A stretch of DNA of 64,000 nt from a bacterium (GTDB lineage: Bacteria > Patescibacteriota > Minisyncoccia > UBA6257 > UBA9933). Location: assembly GCA_021796335.1 (NCBI GenBank), contig JAJYHZ010000001.1:80360-144359 (forward strand), in the 5' to 3' direction. The translations under genes were made by a program, and so were the position numbers. The notes beneath the pieces were generated by a model. It saw nothing but the letters and a program-made list of their open reading frames with translations, did no database searches and had not been told where the DNA came from. Of this stretch, positions 13,514 through 50,980 are shown piece by piece. Positions within the stretch are counted from its first letter, which is position 1. The number at the start of each line of letters is the position of its first letter.

Positions 13514-13706
13514 AAGGTTAAAGGTTGGGTGCATTTTAAAGGAAAGGGAGAATTGGAATCATATCACTTTGATCCTATTGAGAATTTTTAATGCGACTAA
13601 GCGAGGAGTAAAATGCAAAAAAATTTTATTTTTTCATTTTGGATGAGCAATGCCGGATAAAGAGTTTCTTTGACTCTTTAAGGAGCCGATTTCCCGACCC
13701 TTTTTT

Positions 13707-13742
13707 AATCGTATATCTTGACGATCGTCAAGATATACGATT
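13707..13742. repeat. 36-bp perfect palindrome AATCGTATATCTTGACGATCGTCAAGATATACGATT (copy 1)
   Basis: exact inverted repeat; identical copy with identical short flanks at 50642..50677. Confidence 0.9.
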
Positions 13743-13799
13743 ATTCCGAATAGTGTAATGTTTTGTTGAAAATAAAAAAATGATTTATAATTCATCACA

Positions 13800-24964: not shown

Positions 24965-25597
24965 ATGAAAAGCCAATCGGAATCACATAATTTGAAAATG
25001 GAAATCATAAGATTGCGGAAATTATTATCCGAACAAGAAAAAGAAATCGTCGCTTTGCGTCTTATCGCCGATTATGATTTTTTAACCGGTCTTTATAATC
25101 GTCAGGGATTTGTGAGAGAAGCTGAAAAATTCTTAAATTCTCTTAAAACTGCGCATAGGATCAGGCGCAAACACGGCGTTTTCAATAATATTTCTTTTAT
25201 TTTCATAGACTTGGATGATTTGAAAACTGTCAATGATTTGTACGGCCATAAATACGGCGACCAGATGATTAAAATGTCCGCCGAAGTTTTTAAAAGCAAC
25301 TTAAGAGACCTGGACGTAATCGGCCGTTGGGGCGGCGACGAATTTATAATCGCTTTGATTGACGCCGAAGAAGAAGACGCCGTTAAAATCGCCAGAAAAA
25401 TCCAGTCAAAATTATCTGAAATACGCATCAAATCAATCAAACAAAAAATTACCGCTAGTTTCGGAATTATTTCGGTTAAAAGCAAATATAGGAAAGATAT
25501 TTACAACCTCTATGAATTAATTGAAAAAGCCGACATGGCCATGTATGTTGCCAAAAAAGAAAATAAAAAGAATTGCGTTACTTCCTTTAATCAATAA
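24965..25597 (+). CDS. GGDEF domain diguanylate cyclase with N-terminal coiled coil
   Basis: RWGGDEFIIAL active-site motif; DLDDLKTVNDLYGH upstream block. Confidence 0.8.
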   Translation: MKSQSESHNLKMEIIRLRKLLSEQEKEIVALRLIADYDFLTGLYNRQGFVREAEKFLNSLKTAHRIRRKHGVFNNISFIFIDLDDLKTVNDLYGHKYGDQMIKMSAEVFKSNLRDLDVIGRWGGDEFIIALIDAEEEDAVKIARKIQSKLSEIRIKSIKQKITASFGIISVKSKYRKDIYNLYELIEKADMAMYVAKKENKKNCVTSFNQ

Positions 25598-25604
25598 ATA
25601 AAAT

Positions 25605-25784
25605 ATGGAACAAATATTTAAAGAAAAACCAGATGGAATAGAAAAAGAATTTGAAGAAATCGCTAAAGAAAAAGTCATGAATGATCCGCTTTACGATGAT
25701 TTGACGCAAGAGCAAAAAGAACAATTGATTCAAGGTGAATTGGCAAAAATAAAAGAACTCCGGAAGAAGACAAAGGATAATTAA
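25605..25784 (+). CDS. small charged helical protein (59 aa), not in ORF track (below cutoff)
   Basis: ATG 8 nt after the GGDEF stop; Lys/Glu-rich helical sequence MEQIFKEKPDGIEKEF...; the opposite-strand ORF 25587..25790 is poly-Phe low complexity and less plausible. Confidence 0.4.
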   Translation: MEQIFKEKPDGIEKEFEEIAKEKVMNDPLYDDLTQEQKEQLIQGELAKIKELRKKTKDN

Positions 25785-25874
25785 ACCCATTAAAGAATAA
25801 TAGCTCCCCGGGGGGCTTCACCCCTCCTTTTCATTGCAAATAAGCCCCTTCTAAATTAGAATAAAATTGCATTT

Positions 25875-25964
25875 GGAGGCGTCGCATAGTGGCCGAGTGC
25901 GCTCGCTTGGAAAGCGGGTAAGGGGTAAAACCCTTCGTGAGTTCGAATCTCACCGCCTCCGCCA
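25875..25964 (+). tRNA. tRNA-Ser (anticodon GGA), CCA encoded
   Basis: acceptor GGAGGCG/CGCCTCC, anticodon loop TTGGAAA, long variable arm, T-loop TTCGAAT, 3' GCCA. Confidence 0.9.
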
Positions 25965-27461
25965 AGTTTTACATTCAGCGAAATTGAAAGATGTTGCCTC
26001 GGCGCAAAGCGCCTCGGCATGGTATTTTTCCGCAATTTTGAAGGCATTTTTGAAATCCAAAACCAAAGTGCGGTCGGCAATGCGGAAGTTCGAACCAATC
26101 TTTTTGAGAAAATCCCGAATCCTTTCGGGATTTTCTTGTTGAGCGTATTTTTCGGCTTGGTTGGCATCTTTTAGAAAGGCAATGGCAAGTTCGAACCGAT
26201 TATTGCTCTTGCGCCCAAAAGCGGTAATTTTTTCTTCCAAATTTTTTTTGGCGAGAATGAGCTTGTGCTTTTTAGCGGTATATTCCGCTTGCGACAAGTT
26301 GCCGTCCAGTTGTAAATCAAGCAAGCGATCAAGTTTTGTTTCTATTTCTACAAGCTCATTTCTCGCTTTTTGGGCGAAAGAGCTTTCCGCTTGGGCAATT
26401 TTCATTTTTTCGTTTTCAAAATAGTTGATTGAAGCGTTTGCCCAAGCGGAAGACAAAGAAACTTTTTTGATTTCCTCTTTTATTTGAGAAGTGATGGCGT
26501 CCTCTCTCACATATCTCTGCGAACAAGGATTCTTCCGTTTGGTACACCGCAAGTAGTTATGACCTTTTTGCGTTTCGGTGGTAATGAAACAACCACATTC
26601 TCCACAACGGAAAAATCCTCTAAAAATGTATGGTTTGAGTTTTGGCGATTTCGGTTTGCTCTTGTTCGCCATTACTTCTTGAACGGAATCAAAAAGTTTC
26701 TTTGTGATAATCGGTTCATGCTTTCCGTCATACAATTCGCCGTTATATTCAATCATTCCGTAATAGATTTTATTCTTGAGCATATACTGATAATTTGAGA
26801 CGGAAAGCATTTTGCCTTTCTTGCCAACCAAGCCCAAGGAATTGATAATCTTTCGGATTTGAGCGAGGGGGTATTCGCCAGTCGCATACATTTCAAAAGC
26901 CCGCTTGATATACTTTGCTTTTTCCTTATCAACAATAATTTTTCTTTGGTTTTTATCGTTCACATAACCCAGTGGCGCCCAAGCGGGCCATATTCCATTT
27001 CGCAATTTCTGGCGAATACCCCTCTTTATATTTTCCGAAAGATTATCCACATAATATTTTGATTGCCCAAAAGCGATAGACAACATAAATTTTCCTTGCG
27101 GTGTCGGATCAAACCAAAAAGTAGGAAATTTTAGCGTGGTTATTTTTCCAGTATCCACCAAGTAAATTATTCTCCCGCCGTCTATGGAATTGCGAGCCAA
27201 TCTATCGGGGTGCCACGCTAAAATTCCCTCGGCTTCATTTTTCTCTATGCTTGCCACCATTTCGTTAAAAATCTCTCGCCCCGGCTCTTTGGCGGTTTTA
27301 CTTTCCACAAATTCACGGACGATATTTAGTCCCTCTTTTTTGGCATATTCCCGCAACTCAAACATTTGTGCCTCAATACTCAAAACCTGCCTTTCGGGTT
27401 CGTCCGTGGATTTGCGGGCATAGAGAAAAATCTTTTTGGTTTGTAAATTTATATTATCCAT
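25950..27461 (-). CDS. large serine recombinase (resolvase/invertase catalytic domain + recombinase domain + zinc ribbon)
   Basis: N-terminal YARKSTDE...QVLSIEAQ catalytic-Ser region, central recombinase domain, CGECGCF...LRCTKRK zinc ribbon; 503 aa; last 5 codons overlap tRNA-Ser. Confidence 0.85.
   Translation of the reverse strand: MDNINLQTKKIFLYARKSTDEPERQVLSIEAQMFELREYAKKEGLNIVREFVESKTAKEPGREIFNEMVASIEKNEAEGILAWHPDRLARNSIDGGRIIYLVDTGKITTLKFPTFWFDPTPQGKFMLSIAFGQSKYYVDNLSENIKRGIRQKLRNGIWPAWAPLGYVNDKNQRKIIVDKEKAKYIKRAFEMYATGEYPLAQIRKIINSLGLVGKKGKMLSVSNYQYMLKNKIYYGMIEYNGELYDGKHEPIITKKLFDSVQEVMANKSKPKSPKLKPYIFRGFFRCGECGCFITTETQKGHNYLRCTKRKNPCSQRYVREDAITSQIKEEIKKVSLSSAWANASINYFENEKMKIAQAESSFAQKARNELVEIETKLDRLLDLQLDGNLSQAEYTAKKHKLILAKKNLEEKITAFGRKSNNRFELAIAFLKDANQAEKYAQQENPERIRDFLKKIGSNFRIADRTLVLDFKNAFKIAEKYHAEALCAEATSFNFAECKTWRRR
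25962..26091 (+). repeat. R1 copy A (130 bp), abutting the tRNA-Ser 3' end; encodes the recombinase C-terminal about 43 aa
   Basis: 100% identical to the reverse complement of 27577..27706. Confidence 0.9.
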
Positions 27462-27576
27462 ATTGTTTTGAAATTAGTTTTTGGGCAATCAAAGAAAAAT
27501 ACGCTCAACCTTTCGCCAAGGGCGAAAGAAAAAAGATTGGTTCTGAAAACTTCGTTTTCTCTGCACTGTCGTGCAG

Positions 27577-27706
27577 GAACTTCCGCATTGCCGACCGCAC
27601 TTTGGTTTTGGATTTCAAAAATGCCTTCAAAATTGCGGAAAAATACCATGCCGAGGCGCTTTGCGCCGAGGCAACATCTTTCAATTTCGCTGAATGTAAA
27701 ACTTGG
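27577..27706 (-). repeat. R1 copy B (inverted, 130 bp), contiguous with inverted R2
   Basis: exact reverse complement of 25962..26091; read on + strand it re-encodes ...FRIADRTLVLDFKNAFKIAEKYHAEALCAEATSFNFAECKTWR, continuing into R2 as CFLDEVRTFFEQNSE*. Confidence 0.9.
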
Positions 27707-27865
27707 CGGTGTTTTTTGGACGAAGTTCGAACATTTTTTGAGCAAAACTCCGAATGATTGCGCGCTTCGCGCGCAAAACCGAAACGCTCGGGCGGGTAAA
27801 AAGGAAGGGGGTTGGGGGGAAGGAATTTTTGCCCGCCCTCGCTTTCCGCCGCCGCCGAATTTCGT
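27703..27865 (-). repeat. R2 copy (inverted, 163 bp, GC-rich) carrying a dyad-symmetric site GGGCGGGCAAAAA..(poly-C/mirror)..TTTTTACCCGCCC
   Basis: exact reverse complement of 29843..30005. Confidence 0.9.
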
Positions 27866-27975
27866 ATTTTGCTTTGCAAAATGCGCCGCCAAAATTGGAG
27901 TTGTGTTTGCCCCGCCCGCCCGTGCGCACACAACATTTTTTCTCCCTTTGTTTTGCTTGCTAAACATCATTTTAT

Positions 27976-28026
27976 TTGGTAGTATAAAAATACAGATAAT
28001 AACCTTGTATACTACAATACTACCAA
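27976..28026 (+). promoter_or_regulatory. candidate promoter/operator for the XRE gene: 10-bp inverted repeat TTGGTAGTAT-N31-ATACTACCAA overlapping TTGCTA-17-TAGTAT
   Basis: read from sequence just upstream of ATG 28039. Confidence 0.4.
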
Positions 28027-28038
28027 AACTTTATTTAT

Positions 28039-28245
28039 ATGACAAGTGGAAAAACAATAAGTGAAAATATAAAAAGATTACGCAATAAACTTGGTCTAAC
28101 GCAAGACGATTTAGCCAAGAAAGCGGATATTAAATACACTACGCTTATGAAGGTCGAAAGTGGAACAGTTAATAAGCCGAGCGTTCAAACTATGGCGAAT
28201 ATCGCCAAAGCGTTGGGCGTTTCGATTGAGGATTTAATAAAATAA
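28039..28245 (+). CDS. XRE-family (Cro/C1-type) helix-turn-helix transcriptional regulator
   Basis: IKRLRNKLGLTQDDLAKKADIKYTTLMKVESG HTH_3 signature; 68 aa. Confidence 0.85.
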   Translation: MTSGKTISENIKRLRNKLGLTQDDLAKKADIKYTTLMKVESGTVNKPSVQTMANIAKALGVSIEDLIK

Positions 28246-28249
28246 AACT

Positions 28250-28660
28250 ATGGAAAACGAAACAAACAATAAGGCACACGATTTTATTAAAGGAGAAGTT
28301 TTGAAAATGGAGCGCAATTCATTTTTCGTGCGCATGATTGCTGCCGCTTTAGCTTATGCGGGTATAAGCTATTGGCTTAATGCAATTCGTGCCGATGCAT
28401 CTTTGTGGTTTGTTTGGGTTTTGATCATTATTCAATTTGCCCTGTATTTTTCTATTTTTATTATGGGTTATAGGCGTGCAATAGTTTCAGGATTCAACAA
28501 AAATTTGAGTTTAATAGTTTTTATAGCTCTTGCCATTCTTGGAAGAGTAAATGATTGGGAATTGGCGGTTATTCCTCTAACAGTTATCATAATGCTAATT
28601 ATTTCGGCAAAAGCTAAAAATGTTTCTGATAACAGCAAACATTTATTACCACAAAAATAA
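28250..28660 (+). CDS. hypothetical 4-TM membrane protein (136 aa)
   Basis: starts 5 nt after the XRE stop; four hydrophobic helices. Confidence 0.5.
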   Translation: MENETNNKAHDFIKGEVLKMERNSFFVRMIAAALAYAGISYWLNAIRADASLWFVWVLIIIQFALYFSIFIMGYRRAIVSGFNKNLSLIVFIALAILGRVNDWELAVIPLTVIIMLIISAKAKNVSDNSKHLLPQK

Positions 28661-28671
28661 TTTTAAAAAAT

Positions 28672-29382
28672 ATGGGAATTTTTAATTGGTTGTCTAGCAA
28701 TAAAACACAATCCACTAATAAGGACAAAATTACCGCCAAGCAAGTTTTAGATTTTTCTAAAACTTACGAGGAATTAAAACCATATTTTGCTCTCTTTGTG
28801 CATTTCTTTAAATCTATATTGGATAGTGAAAATGAAATTGAGCAGGCGGTAAAAGAAATTCAGTCCAAAACACAGCAAAATCTAAAAGAAGACCAGTTAT
28901 TCAAGGAGTTATGGATTTTACGCTATGTTTGTTTGCATATATGGTTTTTCGATCTCAAACCACCAAAAAATAAAACAGAATTATCCGATGAACTTTTGGT
29001 TATCAATAGCGCGCTTAAAAGTGTTTTGAAAGAAAAGAATAAATTAGATTATTTACCTTGGCTTAAAAATGGTCTGCCTGAATTTGCTGACGGTGAATTA
29101 AACTTTAATAGTCTGAAAAATTTTAGAAAAAATTTTTCAGACAAACTGACAGATAAAATCCCGCATATTGCGTTTGATTGCACAGAGGGGCGATTGGGCG
29201 GAGAATTACACGATTTTGTTATTGAGTTGGTCATGACAACAATTCAAGAAGATCAAAAAGTTTTCAGTATGAGCGATAATAAGACACTAACAGAGGAAGA
29301 AACAAAAAATATCAAAAATGTAATTGCAGAAATGAGCGACGCTAGACATAAAGCGGCGGAAGATTTTATAAATTCTCTATGA
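28672..29382 (+). CDS. hypothetical protein (236 aa), no recognisable domain
   Basis: intact ORF co-oriented in the cargo cassette. Confidence 0.5.
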   Translation: MGIFNWLSSNKTQSTNKDKITAKQVLDFSKTYEELKPYFALFVHFFKSILDSENEIEQAVKEIQSKTQQNLKEDQLFKELWILRYVCLHIWFFDLKPPKNKTELSDELLVINSALKSVLKEKNKLDYLPWLKNGLPEFADGELNFNSLKNFRKNFSDKLTDKIPHIAFDCTEGRLGGELHDFVIELVMTTIQEDQKVFSMSDNKTLTEEETKNIKNVIAEMSDARHKAAEDFINSL

Positions 29383-29816
29383 ATGATTATTTTCAAATCA
29401 TTTTTTCTGCTCTAACTTTACTCGGTGTCGGCGGCATTGTCGGCGGGTATATAACGTTTTTGCTTGATAAAAAGAAAGAGTTGGAATTTAAGCAATTAGA
29501 GCAGAAAGAAAAAAGATATAAATCCTGCCTTTTATACATGGATGTTTATTTTGAGCCGAAAAATATCAAATATCTTTCAAGTCGCCAACCAGATATTGAT
29601 AACGCCCAAGATGTCATAGAATATTTAAAAGCTGAATATCACGAAATGTTGCTTTATGCTTCAAAGGATGTAATTTTATCAGTAAAGGCATTTATCAATG
29701 ATCCGACCAGAGAAAATTTTTTGAAGACTGTTTTGAACATGAGGCAGGATTTATGGGTTAAGAAAAATGATTTAGAATTAGATAGTATTCGGATTGATTT
29801 TAAAAGAAAGAATTAA
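29379..29816 (+). CDS. hypothetical protein with N-terminal TM anchor (145 aa)
   Basis: ATGA overlap with the upstream gene; perfect 9-bp hairpin terminator GTGCCAGTT-TTC-AACTGGCAC follows at 29826..29848. Confidence 0.5.
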   Translation: MNDYFQIIFSALTLLGVGGIVGGYITFLLDKKKELEFKQLEQKEKRYKSCLLYMDVYFEPKNIKYLSSRQPDIDNAQDVIEYLKAEYHEMLLYASKDVILSVKAFINDPTRENFLKTVLNMRQDLWVKKNDLELDSIRIDFKRKN

Positions 29817-29842
29817 AGGCGGCGTGCCAGTTTTCAACTGGC

Positions 29843-30005
29843 ACGAAATTCGGCGGCGGCGGAAAGCGAGGGCGGGCAAAAATTCCTTCCCCCCAACCCC
29901 CTTCCTTTTTACCCGCCCGAGCGTTTCGGTTTTGCGCGCGAAGCGCGCAATCATTCGGAGTTTTGCTCAAAAAATGTTCGAACTTCGTCCAAAAAACACC
30001 GCCAA
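29843..30005 (+). repeat. R2 copy (+ orientation, 163 bp) ending in core-like CACCGCCAA
   Basis: exact inverted match to 27703..27865. Confidence 0.9.
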
Positions 30006-30107
30006 TAGTTTTGGAAAATGAGCAAGTAAAAGTCCTTATTTTACGGCACATTTTAAAAACGAAATTTACAAAAACCACTGAACCCCGAAGGGATTCGAAC
30101 TGAGACT

Positions 30108-30506
30108 ATGAACGACGAAATTCAAAAGATAATAAAGAAGAGCACTTTTAGAGTTGAAGAAGGCAGATTTGTGTATGCTCAAGTTTTAAATGCTCCGAGC
30201 GTAGACAAACACTTCATGGTAAGTAAAGATGCCGATGAAGTCACCGTAGTTACAAAAGAAGAGAATCTGCCAGAATTAGATATCAAAGAACGCAATAAAG
30301 ATTTTTATCGCTTGATTGCGCTAAATGTATCAATACCGTTCTACTCTGTTGGATTCCTAGCAACCATCAGCCAAGCAATAGCTGAACAAGGCATGAATAT
30401 TCTCATCGTATCTACCTATTCGAAGGATTATATTATGGTTAAGGATGATAAGTTGGAAAAAGCAAAGTCGGTCTTGATGGGACTCGGTTTTAAAGAAATC
30501 GGTTAG
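30108..30506 (+). CDS. ACT domain-containing protein
   Basis: C-terminal beta-alpha-beta-beta-alpha-beta-like segment GFLATISQAIAEQGMNILIVSTYSKDYIMV typical of ACT regulatory domains. Confidence 0.45.
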   Translation: MNDEIQKIIKKSTFRVEEGRFVYAQVLNAPSVDKHFMVSKDADEVTVVTKEENLPELDIKERNKDFYRLIALNVSIPFYSVGFLATISQAIAEQGMNILIVSTYSKDYIMVKDDKLEKAKSVLMGLGFKEIG

Positions 30507-30627
30507 TTTGATATAGCGGATTACAACGGATTATAGCGGTAATTAGCAAATCTTTTGAGCAAATTTTGGAATATCAAAATAAGCAGGATTTTCTTTGTAG
30601 ATTCTTCGCAAGTTCCGTATAATTTTA

Positions 30628-31020
30628 TCAACACGATAGAATGAAAACGCCCGTACTGGTTCTAACTTCGGGACATCGCCTCCGCCAATTTTTACTTTTT
30701 GTGAAATCGTAAGGAATTGCCTCGGCGCAAAGCGCCTCGGCATGATATTTTTCCGCAATTTTGAAGGCATTTTTGAAATCCAAAACCAAAGTGCGGTTGG
30801 TAATGCGGAAGTTTGAAAAACACCGCAGAATGAGATTTTGAGCGTACACACGCTTAATTTCTTTTTTATCTATCACGTTTTCCACAAGTTCTAACCTCCT
30901 GTGAATATGATTTATTTCTTTTGATATTTTTCCCATCACTAAAATTAACTTTTCAAGCAAGCACTGAATATTTTGTTTTGAAACGTAAATGGCTGTATAA
31001 TAAAAACAAATGTATAGCAA
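30628..31020 (-). pseudogene. remnant ORF containing a recombinase C-terminal fragment (RTLVLDFKNAFKIAEKYHAEALCAEA)
   Basis: 130-aa ORF whose middle matches the last about 40 aa of the serine recombinase; no catalytic domain. Confidence 0.5.
30676..30820 (+). repeat. diverged third R1 copy preceded by the 12-nt tRNA-Ser 3' duplicate CGCCTCCGCCAA (attR-like or remnant)
   Basis: about 98-bp near-identical core (30716..30813) to R1, with 2 mismatches; tRNA-proximal 40 bp diverged. Confidence 0.8.
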
Positions 31021-31032
31021 AAATTAATTAAT

Positions 31033-32037
31033 ATGAGAAAAGCAATTATTATTATTATAATTGTGATAGTTGTTGCTCTAATATTTATTATAGTTAAACA
31101 GAATTCCAGAATTAATTCACAAATTTCCAACTCCGCATCCACTGCAGCGAACAATGTTTCTTCGTCGACAAATAACATTCCTTCATCTTCTGTGGGTAAA
31201 ACCGAAGAAAAAACTCTAAACTTCCAGGGATTGGAAAGATATTACCTTATCCATTTTCCTTCCGGATTTGATCCAAACAAAACTTATCCCTTGGTTTTAT
31301 CCCTTCATGGCGGCGGCGGTAATCCGGCGGAATTTGAAACAAAAATGGGCTTCGACGCTTTAGCTGATCAGAGCGGCTATATTGTAGTTTATCCGGCTGG
31401 AACTGGCAGAACAAAATTACTGACATGGAATCCGGAAACCCATATTCAGGTTTATGCGTCCGAACATAACATTGACGATGTCGGTTTTATTAAAACATTG
31501 GTTCAACAGTTGGAAAAAGGCCAAAAAATAAATACTAATAGGATCTACATCGTGGGATATTCCAATGGCGCCATGATGACTCAGAGGATAGCTTCCACGT
31601 ATCCGGATATTTTTGCCGCAGCCGTTTCCGTGGCCGGAACAATCGGAGGTAGAGCAAACGTCAATGCGCCACTAAAAACTATCCAAAAACCGGCAGACCC
31701 GTTCTCATTTATGGAAATTCACGGCATGCAGGATAAAACAGTCAATTATTACGGCGGGCAGACTTCGCCCAGCATATTTTTCAACCAGTCAAACCGGATT
31801 GATCTTTCGGTAGCCGACACAATCAAGTTTTGGACCGATGCCGACGGATGCGCATCTGCCGCTCCGATTGTGACAAAAACTTCGGATTATACAAAAGATT
31901 TTTACGATAAATGCAAAAACGGGACAAACGTCACTCTCTATTCATTGAAAAATGCTACACACGATTCCATTTGGTCCGATCCGGCCGATATCTCGCAGAT
32001 CATCTGGAATTTTCTGAATAATCATATTCGTGGTTAA
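31033..32037 (+). CDS. secreted/membrane-anchored alpha/beta hydrolase (esterase, PHB-depolymerase-like family)
   Basis: N-terminal TM, HGGGG oxyanion region, GYSNGA nucleophile elbow. Confidence 0.6.
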   Translation: MRKAIIIIIIVIVVALIFIIVKQNSRINSQISNSASTAANNVSSSTNNIPSSSVGKTEEKTLNFQGLERYYLIHFPSGFDPNKTYPLVLSLHGGGGNPAEFETKMGFDALADQSGYIVVYPAGTGRTKLLTWNPETHIQVYASEHNIDDVGFIKTLVQQLEKGQKINTNRIYIVGYSNGAMMTQRIASTYPDIFAAAVSVAGTIGGRANVNAPLKTIQKPADPFSFMEIHGMQDKTVNYYGGQTSPSIFFNQSNRIDLSVADTIKFWTDADGCASAAPIVTKTSDYTKDFYDKCKNGTNVTLYSLKNATHDSIWSDPADISQIIWNFLNNHIRG

Positions 32038-50582: not shown

Positions 50583-50641
50583 TGCGAAAGTTTTAATCTG
50601 ATGCAAAAATCCTCAAACGGGAATTTTGTATTTTTGTTTTT

Positions 50642-50677
50642 AATCGTATATCTTGACGATCGTCAAGATATACGATT
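50642..50677. repeat. 36-bp perfect palindrome (copy 2), 60 nt after the 5S
   Basis: identical to 13707..13742 including 4-5 nt of flank on each side. Confidence 0.9.
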
Positions 50678-50980
50678 ATTTAATTAATCTATAAACCCCA
50701 GGTGTAACCGGGGCGTGCCATATAATTGATTTCAATCTCCATAATAATACTTTATGCTGCGAACAAATTTATATAATTTAGATAAAATAATTCATTAATT
50801 ATCACAGAATAGCCGGCGATAAAGCCGGCAAAAACAATGCCATCGGACGGTCAGTCTGATGGCCGTTTACTTTAACAAGGAAAAAACCAAGAGAAATATA
50901 AATCCTGTTGTTAACGGGACTTTTTTAATTTAGAAATATTTTTTATACTTATATAAATTTGCAATTTTCAATCTGCAATC

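Follow-up and report, generated by a model that had tools for sequence, protein, structure and literature searches.

We analysed a 64,000-nt window of bacterial DNA, to whose positions all coordinates refer, in which a gene for a 503-amino-acid (aa) large serine recombinase (LSR) terminates inside tRNA-Ser(GGA), with its stop codon at 25950–25952, 15 nt inside the 3′ end of the tRNA. Two pairs of long inverted repeats, R1 and R2, bound the recombinase gene (hereafter the integrase) and a neighbouring cargo module, respectively, and meet in a block that has the make-up of an attP site and is placed between the divergent integrase and XRE genes (Table 1). We consider it likely that positions 25959–30002 are an intact integrated copy of a ~4-kb mobile element, and this copy was probably recently active. 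Our confidence in the element and its architecture is good; any specific function of the spare internal attP is doubtful.

Repeat search and BLAST returned both inverted pairs at 100% identity: 25959–26091 with 27577–27709 (R1, 133 nt) and 27703–27865 with 29843–30005 (R2, 163 nt). The two pairs share a 7-nt core overlap, CCGCCAA/TTGGCGG. A direct copy of R1 is found further to the right (25951–26094 with 30674–30817, 144 nt, 90% identity) and is preceded by CGCCTCCGCCAA at 30671–30682. A megablast self-comparison of the window gave no further repeats of such size except one 44-nt palindrome pair, and a chance origin of the repeats is excluded. GC (guanine plus cytosine) content is 38.2% in the element versus 38.4% in the window, and the R2 block alone is GC-rich (52.7% peak). 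A preliminary description of this DNA had reported a 503-aa LSR ending inside tRNA-Ser(GGA), a GC-rich 163-nt R2 with an exact inverted copy, a diverged third copy of R1 and an otherwise non-repetitive region, all of which we recovered. Its exact inverted repetition of R1 was recovered as well, at a length of 133 nt and not 130.

Table 1 Features of the element and its surroundings
Feature	Position	Strand	Remarks
tRNA-Ser(GGA)	25875–25964	+	attB-derived left arm; ARAGORN and Rfam
T-loop GTTCGAA in tRNA-Ser	25941–25947	+	11 nt before the core
Putative crossover core CCGC at attL	25959–25962	+	From attL, internal attP and attR aligned across 20 loci
R1, P′ arm of attL	25959–26091	+	Also encodes the last ~44 integrase codons
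Large serine recombinase (integrase)	25950–27461	-	503 aa in the integrated state; Pfam domains
u, integrase 5′ leader/promoter region	27462–27576	-	Includes a degenerate integrase C-terminal duplication (27494–27576) and two small hairpins
Complete internal attP, inverted	27577–27865	-	R1′ 27577–27709, core TTGGCGG 27703–27709, R2′ 27703–27865
Cargo module	27866–29842	+	XRE/C-protein-like regulator 28039–28245, then open reading frames 28250–28660, 28672–29382 and 29379–29816
R2, P arm of attR	29843–30005	+	Ends in core CCGCCAA 29999–30005
GTTCGAA in R2	29976–29982	+	16 nt before the core
GC-rich hairpin module in R2	29871–29919	+	
Host DNA right of the element	30003–30542	+	Original tRNA trailer; holds an ACT-domain gene, 30108–30506
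Decayed second copy of a related element	30543–30983	-	

Attachment-site anatomy and assembly support

We collected ~170 related loci from independent assemblies (labelled by L-numbers) and, for 20 loci, aligned all three junctions with the core as anchor. Across these 20 loci, attL reads tRNA...CT-CCGCCAA-R1 and the internal site reads R2...AAAAAACA-CCGCCAA-R1. The attR junction reads R2...ACA-CCGC followed by host-specific bases, which are CAA, CAG or CAT where the host encodes CCA and otherwise TGT, ATG, AGA, AAT and others. The attL, internal and attR sites share arms as predicted for B-O-P′, P-O-P′ and P-O-B′. Since host homology stops at CCGC and the bases beyond are host-specific, we place the exchange inside CCGC, which corresponds to the last two acceptor-stem bases, the discriminator G73 and C74; the CA(A) completing the CCA end of the tRNA comes from the element. 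From the symmetry of the arms (TTCG/CGAA), the crossover dinucleotide would be the first CC of CCGC. Wherever the tRNA meets the element it adjoins R1, never R2′, so that a polarity exists, and a non-palindromic CC fits this polarity.

Judged by its sequence, the internal R2-core-R1 block is a complete attP (P arm, core and P′ arm), inverted relative to the ends of the element. Consistently across loci, the motif GTTCGAA stands 11 nt from the core in the tRNA and GTTCGAA(C) stands 16 nt from it in R2, a comparison that concerns the left arms alone, B′ being host-specific. In the half-sites of serine integrases, the motif of the second DNA-binding domain (DBD2) is ~5 bp nearer the centre of an attB than that of an attP (PMC11722253), and the 5-bp outward shift of GTTCGAA in R2 therefore corresponds to canonical serine-integrase attP/attB geometry. 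A related TTTCG motif is present on the R1 side, 16 nt from the core.

Hallmarks of integrative islands are found at both ends: an intact tRNA-Ser is predicted at attL, and the core is repeated at 25959 and 29999. The integrase contains the domains Resolvase (PF00239), Recombinase (PF07508) and Zn_ribbon_recom (PF13408), all above Pfam cutoffs, and its translation shows a YARKS motif and, after residue 332, a long helical insert. The reading made from the sequence beforehand, an integrative element aimed at tRNA-Ser with a LSR as its driver, is upheld by the junction alignments and by these domains. The retained internal attP proposed with it likewise agrees with the data: in the 20 loci, this site is identical in make-up to the P arm, core and P′ arm that are split at the ends, and its spacing compared with the tRNA is attP-like.

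The window is derived from a metagenome, and the layout might be the product of a collapsed or chimeric contig built from repeats shared between strains. Contigs of the same population do break at repeat edges (29843 is the first position of L081 and 25964 the last of L084 and L086), and one contig, L083, joins the 38% GC genome to 62% GC DNA via the element. Each junction is nevertheless reproduced in independent assemblies. In contigs of the same population, L085 covers the tRNA, R1 and the integrase 3′ end, L082 runs from the cargo through R2 to the ACT gene, and L172 equals window positions 27105–28530 at 100% (integrase 5′ end, u, R1′, R2′ and XRE). Diverged homology also extends past the perfect arms: by tblastn, the inverted R1 copy continues, diverged and with an indel, into ~80 nt more of integrase C-terminal homology (27494–27576). 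An assembler cannot invent colinear diverged homology beside a perfect repeat, which argues directly against an artefact. The layout furthermore recurs on contigs of up to 775 kb with NODE_ and k141/k127 name styles, pointing to different assemblers. We regard an assembly artefact as exceedingly improbable.

The ambiguous contigs L083, L175 and L008/L096 were not used as evidence. The first of these, L083 (12740–13904; ERZ27233565 k141_1385758), runs from tRNA-Ser(gga)-R1 into a u-integrase segment that is nucleotide-identical to the window and then into tRNA-Ser(gct) and 62% GC DNA. Because of this continuation, it was discarded as proof of an inversion of the integrase segment. Most likely, an identical element residing in a high-GC organism from this sample gave rise to a chimera; a rearrangement via the internal attP is the other possibility. 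The chimera, if true, would suggest very recent sharing of the element. L008 and L096 show the same pattern as L083. In L175, from the population of the window, the right host flank is joined to the XRE end of the cargo, suggesting flipped cargo, across a 163-nt repeat that exceeds the assembly k-mer of 141.

Spread, architecture and cargo of the element family

Relatives of the integrase occur in at least 538 species-level (representative) genomes and at least 572 metagenome contigs of the Joint Genome Institute (JGI). Integrases 90–97% identical to that of the window are found in metagenome-assembled genomes labelled Paceibacterota, Saccharibacteria, Gracilibacteria, Moraniibacteriota, Andersenbacteria, Kuenenbacteria, Magasanikbacteria, Peribacteria and others, and relatives from Elusimicrobia are ~60% identical; the labels of a few unexpected hosts (Gammaproteobacteria and the like) could not be verified. 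The host is of Paceibacteria type, near Ca. Wolfebacteria, and the nearest non-self relative of its RpoB is only 81–82% identical. Compared with the window, related loci are 80–100% identical in R1, in the leader u and in the 50 nt of R2 nearest to the core. Parts of the element are 90–100% identical between genomes while the chromosomal flanks are unalignable. Relatives with the same recombinase and repeats had been expected beforehand to weaken the case for mobility. We find the opposite, since near-identical elements with unalignable flanks at genes for different tRNA-Ser isoacceptors are strong evidence for mobility. Viral contigs gave one distant match, and we conclude that the element is not a phage.

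The order R2′ - cargo - R2.core.R1 - u - integrase - R1′.core′ - tRNA′ is kept in nearly every locus with enough sequence, and the layout of the window is shared by most of the ~170 related loci. Of the two topologies left open in the preliminary description, an element carrying an internal inverted attP-like copy proved correct and is a trait of the family. The other, a tandem integration with a degraded older copy, is right in that an older copy is present (30543–30983), and fails to account for the internal repeats. In a version specific to this genome, the internal R2′-R1′ block would be the decayed leftover junction of a head-to-head second element, for which the decayed copy 0.5 kb to the right and the alternating-module arrays of L027, L087 and L099 can be cited. 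However, neither the position nor the boundaries of the internal block change across ~80 loci of unrelated hosts, among them relatives at 60% integrase identity, and in the window the block is 100% identical to both ends, so that nested or tandem integration debris is a highly improbable source. The arrays themselves (cargo-integrase-cargo or integrase-cargo-integrase) are joined by attP-type junctions, and in L092 and L160 a second integrase, 54–59% identical, lies a few kb away.

The decayed neighbour comprises an R2′-like fragment (30543–30572), a junction with the core (30671–30682), an R1 arm (30682–30817), integrase codons ~400–503 at 47% identity (30676–30951) and a piece resembling the integrase 5′ leader (30970–30983). 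By its composition it is an internally deleted older copy of a related element, which shows an earlier occupation of the neighbourhood. The 12-nt duplicate of the tRNA 3′ end noted beforehand is indeed present at 30671–30682, and its status as an old attL is ambiguous. The left arm of this junction carries GTTCTAA 16 nt from CCGC (P-type spacing) and also shares CGCCT, five extra bases, with the tRNA; it may be an attP-type junction of the decayed copy.

The cargo turns over from locus to locus. It starts with a 64–72 aa XRE protein in 19 of 22 loci, for which the PADLOC matches include restriction-modification (R-M) 'control protein' models, and continues with variable gene sets of 1.6–7.9 kb that are unrelated among loci. 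These encode a C5 methylase with an NgoPII endonuclease, type III Mod and Res, Eco57I-like proteins, AAA_13 ATPases, a GmrSD/Mrr_N/Schlafen protein or radical-SAM proteins, and by their predicted functions the cargo genes of relatives are mostly defence (anti-phage) genes. Since near-identical integrases (95–97% at the nucleotide level) carry cargo without detectable similarity, the modules are exchanged; where the NgoPII cargo is shared, its divergence is similar to that of the accompanying integrases. The cargo is oriented as in the window in ~90% of loci and flipped in L041, L043 and L087.

Integrase tail, repeat arms and proposed mechanism

In the window, the integrase ends in ...TWRRR before its stop, encoded by the strand antisense to the tRNA. 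Of 40 close homologues, 30 read into antisense tRNA (...WRR(G/E/D)RDSNPR..., of variable length) and the remaining 10 end in ...WRCFLDEVRTFFEQNPE before the stop, encoded by R2 at an attP-type junction; at the level of loci, the integrase is followed by R2 in 7 cases. The native integrase open reading frame (ORF) runs across attP into R2, with the conserved tail CFLDEVRTFFEQNPE and a protein length of ~519 aa. This form would be encoded wherever the integrase adjoins attP, be it in a circle, in the alternative orientation or in an array, and integration into the tRNA replaces the last ~16 residues, in the window by RRR and a stop. Variability of the tail codons is concentrated at third positions (entropy 0.40/0.24/0.77 by codon position; 47 distinct P arms, 15 codons), showing that the tail is under protein-level selection, and the integrase has a ratio of nonsynonymous to synonymous substitution rates (dN/dS) of ~0.1 with dS of 0.25–0.5. 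Neither the exact 503-aa integrase nor the ORF across the internal site was on record in a database look-up. To our knowledge, an integrase ORF rewritten by integration has not been described for a serine integrase. A promoter and terminator scan gave counts equal to the shuffled expectation and was uninformative.

The two R1 copies within a locus have at most 3 mismatches in 36 of 58 distinct loci; between loci, the mean pairwise R1 difference per 10-nt bin ranges from ~2% to ~30%. This pattern reads as concerted evolution of the R1 arms. R1 falls into at least four sequence types, with the decayed copy in the window belonging to type b, and the R2 arm varies from ~107 to 460 nt among loci. 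The arms are far longer than the 40–50 bp needed by the integrase. Gene conversion, or homologous recombination of one attP region with the other, most simply explains their similarity and would also yield the module arrays (L027, L087, L099), cargo swapping and rare flips.

A 49-nt GC-rich hairpin module (GGGCGGG stem, C-rich loop) occurs inside both R2 copies, at 27789–27837 and 29871–29919. It is 92–100% conserved in 36 of ~170 loci and always paired inside the R2 arms, with varying core distance and orientation. An Rfam search of 25500–31200 (E up to 1) matched the tRNA alone, so that the GC-rich R2 block corresponds to no known RNA family. Just beyond the perfect R2 arms, at 27866–27893 and 29815–29842, a hairpin of different sequence is followed by the same GCCGCC, which looks like a conserved structure with a replaced stem. 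The leader u of the window contains two small hairpins, GAAAACttcGTTTTC and CTGCACtgtcGTGCAG; the peptide segment matching them occurs as two haplotypes across loci, as judged at the peptide level, and may preserve the hairpins. The + strand frame 27462–27757, antisense to the integrase start, is open through u, R1′ and the core into R2′ in 29 of 29 loci and encodes the degenerate copy of the integrase C-terminus and the conserved tail. In the window, this frame has no ATG, GTG or TTG start downstream of the integrase start codon.

The integrase 3′ end adjoins a tRNA in 108 of ~122 informative loci (Ser-gga, -gct, -tga and -cga; two Asp-gtc, one Trp-cca, and Gln), an R2-type arm in 7 and an unclear partner in 7; its 5′ side adjoins an R2-type arm in 80 loci and a tRNA in 6. 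Overall, the 3′ end lies at the tRNA in ~96% of loci (~96:4). The rarer targets tRNA-Asp(gtc), tRNA-Trp(cca) and tRNA-Gln(ttg) are occupied in L103, L106, L108 and L130 by integrases 80–96% identical to that of the window. All four tRNAs carry a GTTCGAATCC-type T-loop, and the core is CCGCCA at the Asp and Trp sites, as at tRNA-Ser, and CAGCCA at the Gln site (L130). The opposite arrangement, tRNA-R1-u-integrase-R1′-R2′-cargo, is found on the 543-kb contig L101, the one reliable locus of this kind. Its two R1 copies are 86% identical and its orientation is therefore not an assembly ambiguity; the arrangement matches integration via the second attP, which suggests that both attPs are usable.

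These orientations bear on a different reading, in which the recombinase is mainly an invertase that flips the integrase segment, including its own C-terminus, and/or the cargo in a programmed switch, as in Gin/Hin/Cin or the 2-micron plasmid, with tRNA integration being secondary. Inverted copies of the site on which the recombinase acts enclose each of the two segments, and both orientations occur among loci for the cargo (L041, L043, L087) and for the integrase (L101). A flipped integrase segment would regain the conserved native tail, and in L175 the XRE end of the cargo meets the right host flank, although this contig crosses the 163-nt repeat at k = 141 and may be a graph artefact. Against a switch stand the skew in orientation (~96% for the integrase, ~90% for the cargo) and the unidirectional cargo genes with no alternative gene sets. 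Studied serine integrases moreover synapse two attP sites without recombining them (PMC11722253). A programmed inversion switch is quite unlikely.

We favour a mobile element with the following pathway. Conservative attP × attB recombination within CCGC, carried out by the large serine integrase, would place the element in the 3′ end of tRNA-Ser(GGA). The element consists of two modules, each bounded by inverted arms, with the integrase between P′ arms (R1) and the cargo between P arms (R2); the free circle would therefore have to carry two identical inverted attP sites. Integration via the attP at the integrase 3′ end would generate attL (tRNA-core-R1), the inverted internal attP and attR (R2-core-host). 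In the resulting orientation, the integrase is antisense to tRNA read-through and has a foreign tail, and would be kept off. Such silencing is supported by free tRNA-Ser genes that lie 1–8 kb from intact internal attPs without rearrangement (L004, L016, L031). The attP retained in the divergent integrase/XRE control region would be a potential second attP; that it is functional and doubles as this control region is favoured but unproven. The arms may in addition mediate module exchange by providing homology for swapping cargo between elements.

Several observations weigh against this pathway. (i) Two identical attPs predict both orientations equally, and with ~96% one way, selection or regulation must be invoked. 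(ii) No recombination directionality factor (RDF) is recognisable, the sole other conserved gene being that of the 64–72 aa XRE protein; since directionality factors have no common signature, their absence cannot be shown. (iii) A search of JGI metagenomes for an empty site, a check suggested beforehand, gave 0 matches to the exact attB pattern. (iv) No closed circle was recovered for the window or other populations, and integrase-attP junction contigs do exist in other populations. (v) R1 pairs are diverged or mosaic in 22 of 58 loci (in L022, for example, the P′ arm is of type b at attL and of type d at the internal site), so that perfect identity of the arms is not obligatory. (vi) The apparent alternative arrangements L083, L175 and L008 may be assembly-graph artefacts. 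(vii) The cargo ORFs of the window (136, 236 and 145 aa) match no Pfam or PADLOC/NCBIfam family above threshold, and hence no defence family.

The inverted attP and the long arms might instead be an adaptation to single-stranded DNA transfer, serving as a strand splint for precise circularisation without the recombinase, with the hairpin modules as strand-independent priming sites and the tail exchange acting as a directionality or off switch that replaces the RDF; we consider this unlikely. In its explicit form, R2′/R2 and R1/R1′ would pair in one strand after natural transformation and align the ends, and host flap nucleases and ligase would close a single-stranded circle, from which the double-stranded circle with two attPs would arise. 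The nearest precedent known to us is the folded single-stranded attP of CTX phage. A splint would account for the inverted placing of the copy, for arms (133 nt plus 107–460 nt) beyond the 40–50 bp integrase need, for their frequent homogenisation (by heteroduplex repair), for hairpin modules in both orientations, for the missing directionality factor and for near-identical copies in many lineages lacking known conjugation systems; the element is also nearly absent from viral contigs. The proposal is wholly inferential, arms are imperfect in 38% of loci, and ordinary excision and integration would account just as well for the conserved tail and the attP geometry. The splint is left with a very low probability.

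Relation to known systems

The element belongs with small cargo-shuttling integrative elements such as the staphylococcal cassette chromosome (SCC), pipolins and tycheposons; it is a serine-integrase integrative element and not categorically new. With the A118/LI, phiC31, Bxb1 and SPbeta SprA integrases it shares a three-domain recombinase, a short core, the 5-bp shifted outer motif, an integrase next to attP and conservative site-specific integration. Unlike the serine integrases of phages and integrative and conjugative elements, it targets a tRNA 3′ end, which is typical of tyrosine integrases; it is ~4–10 kb long, has no phage or conjugation genes and carries a second inverted attP, and its integrase ORF crosses attP with no recognisable directionality factor. 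A sequence search of PDB with the integrase gave matches limited to the catalytic domain, to which similarity with solved LSR structures is confined.

SCCmec (CcrAB/CcrC) is likewise a LSR-driven non-conjugative cassette at the 3′ end of a conserved gene with highly variable cargo. The best NCBIfam match of our integrase is indeed CcrB, but at 103.5 bits versus a cutoff of 900, and the element differs from SCC by its tRNA target in place of rlmH, by its single recombinase gene and by the internal inverted attP, which is unknown there. SSV-type archaeal integrases are tyrosine recombinases with attP inside the gene, which is split in two by integration. The location of attP within the integrase gene and the altered ORF are common to both, whereas here a serine integrase exchanges its last ~16 codons only. 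The yeast 2-micron plasmid encodes replication and partition genes and the tyrosine recombinase Flp, which acts on identical sites and yields equimolar isomers. The circle proposed here would resemble it in having two long inverted repeats that hold the recombinase target and two unique segments; it would differ by its LSR, by no conserved replication gene being seen, by orientations of ~96:4 and ~90:10 and by the chromosomal location of the copies. The Hin/Gin/Cin invertases are small recombinases with a C-terminal helix-turn-helix and ~26 bp sites, unlike the 503-aa LSR, the 133–460 nt arms and the unidirectional cargo with its own leader gene described here.

A cassette between two inverted attP sites is known from engineered phiC31 landing pads (MiMIC and recombinase-mediated cassette exchange; 10.1101/2020.08.13.249656), which are synthetic and the only cassettes of this kind that the literature searches returned. 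Pipolins (PMC11551731) and tycheposons (10.1101/2020.12.28.424599) are also small tRNA-targeted elements that combine a mobility module with an exchangeable defence or cargo module. Pipolins code for a PolB that needs no primer (PMC11551731); replication genes are found in many tycheposons, whose integrases are almost exclusively of the tyrosine type (10.1101/2020.12.28.424599). No member of either group is described with an internal inverted attP. A large LSR survey mentions neither tRNA targets nor these phyla (PMC10083194). Full-text literature searches returned no account of this family, nor of any natural element in which a serine integrase is accompanied by a second inverted attP; the family is very widespread in the small-genomed Patescibacteria and apparently undescribed.

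Patescibacteria (the candidate phyla radiation) make up a large share of bacterial diversity; the mobile elements described from them are very few, and genetic tools are almost lacking. The family looks like a major channel for passing defence genes, R-M systems included, from one of these lineages to another. Both attP and attB are defined closely enough for trying the integrase as an integration tool, the target being the 3′ end of any tRNA-Ser. The conserved inverted attP and the ORF that crosses attP bear on directionality and silencing in a system without a recognisable directionality factor. The element also breaks metagenome assemblies and can chimerise them, as L083 would illustrate.

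Within the cargo of the window, the 236-aa ORF gave marginal matches only (PtuA at E 0.005; HAD at 17.6 bits versus a cutoff of 228), and its protein is predicted to fold into an all-helical bundle (predicted local distance difference test score of 79) with no significant PDB match. Close homologues occur outside such elements in other Patescibacteria (L176), flanked by small ORFs of comparable size, and a further homologue, with 46% identity, comes from a phage-like region (L178). Elsewhere in the window, the 44-nt near-perfect palindrome (TTTTTAATCGTATATCTTGACGATCGTCAAGATATACGATTA...) is present in identical copies at 13702–13745 and 50637–50680, 37 kb apart, in intergenic-looking DNA.

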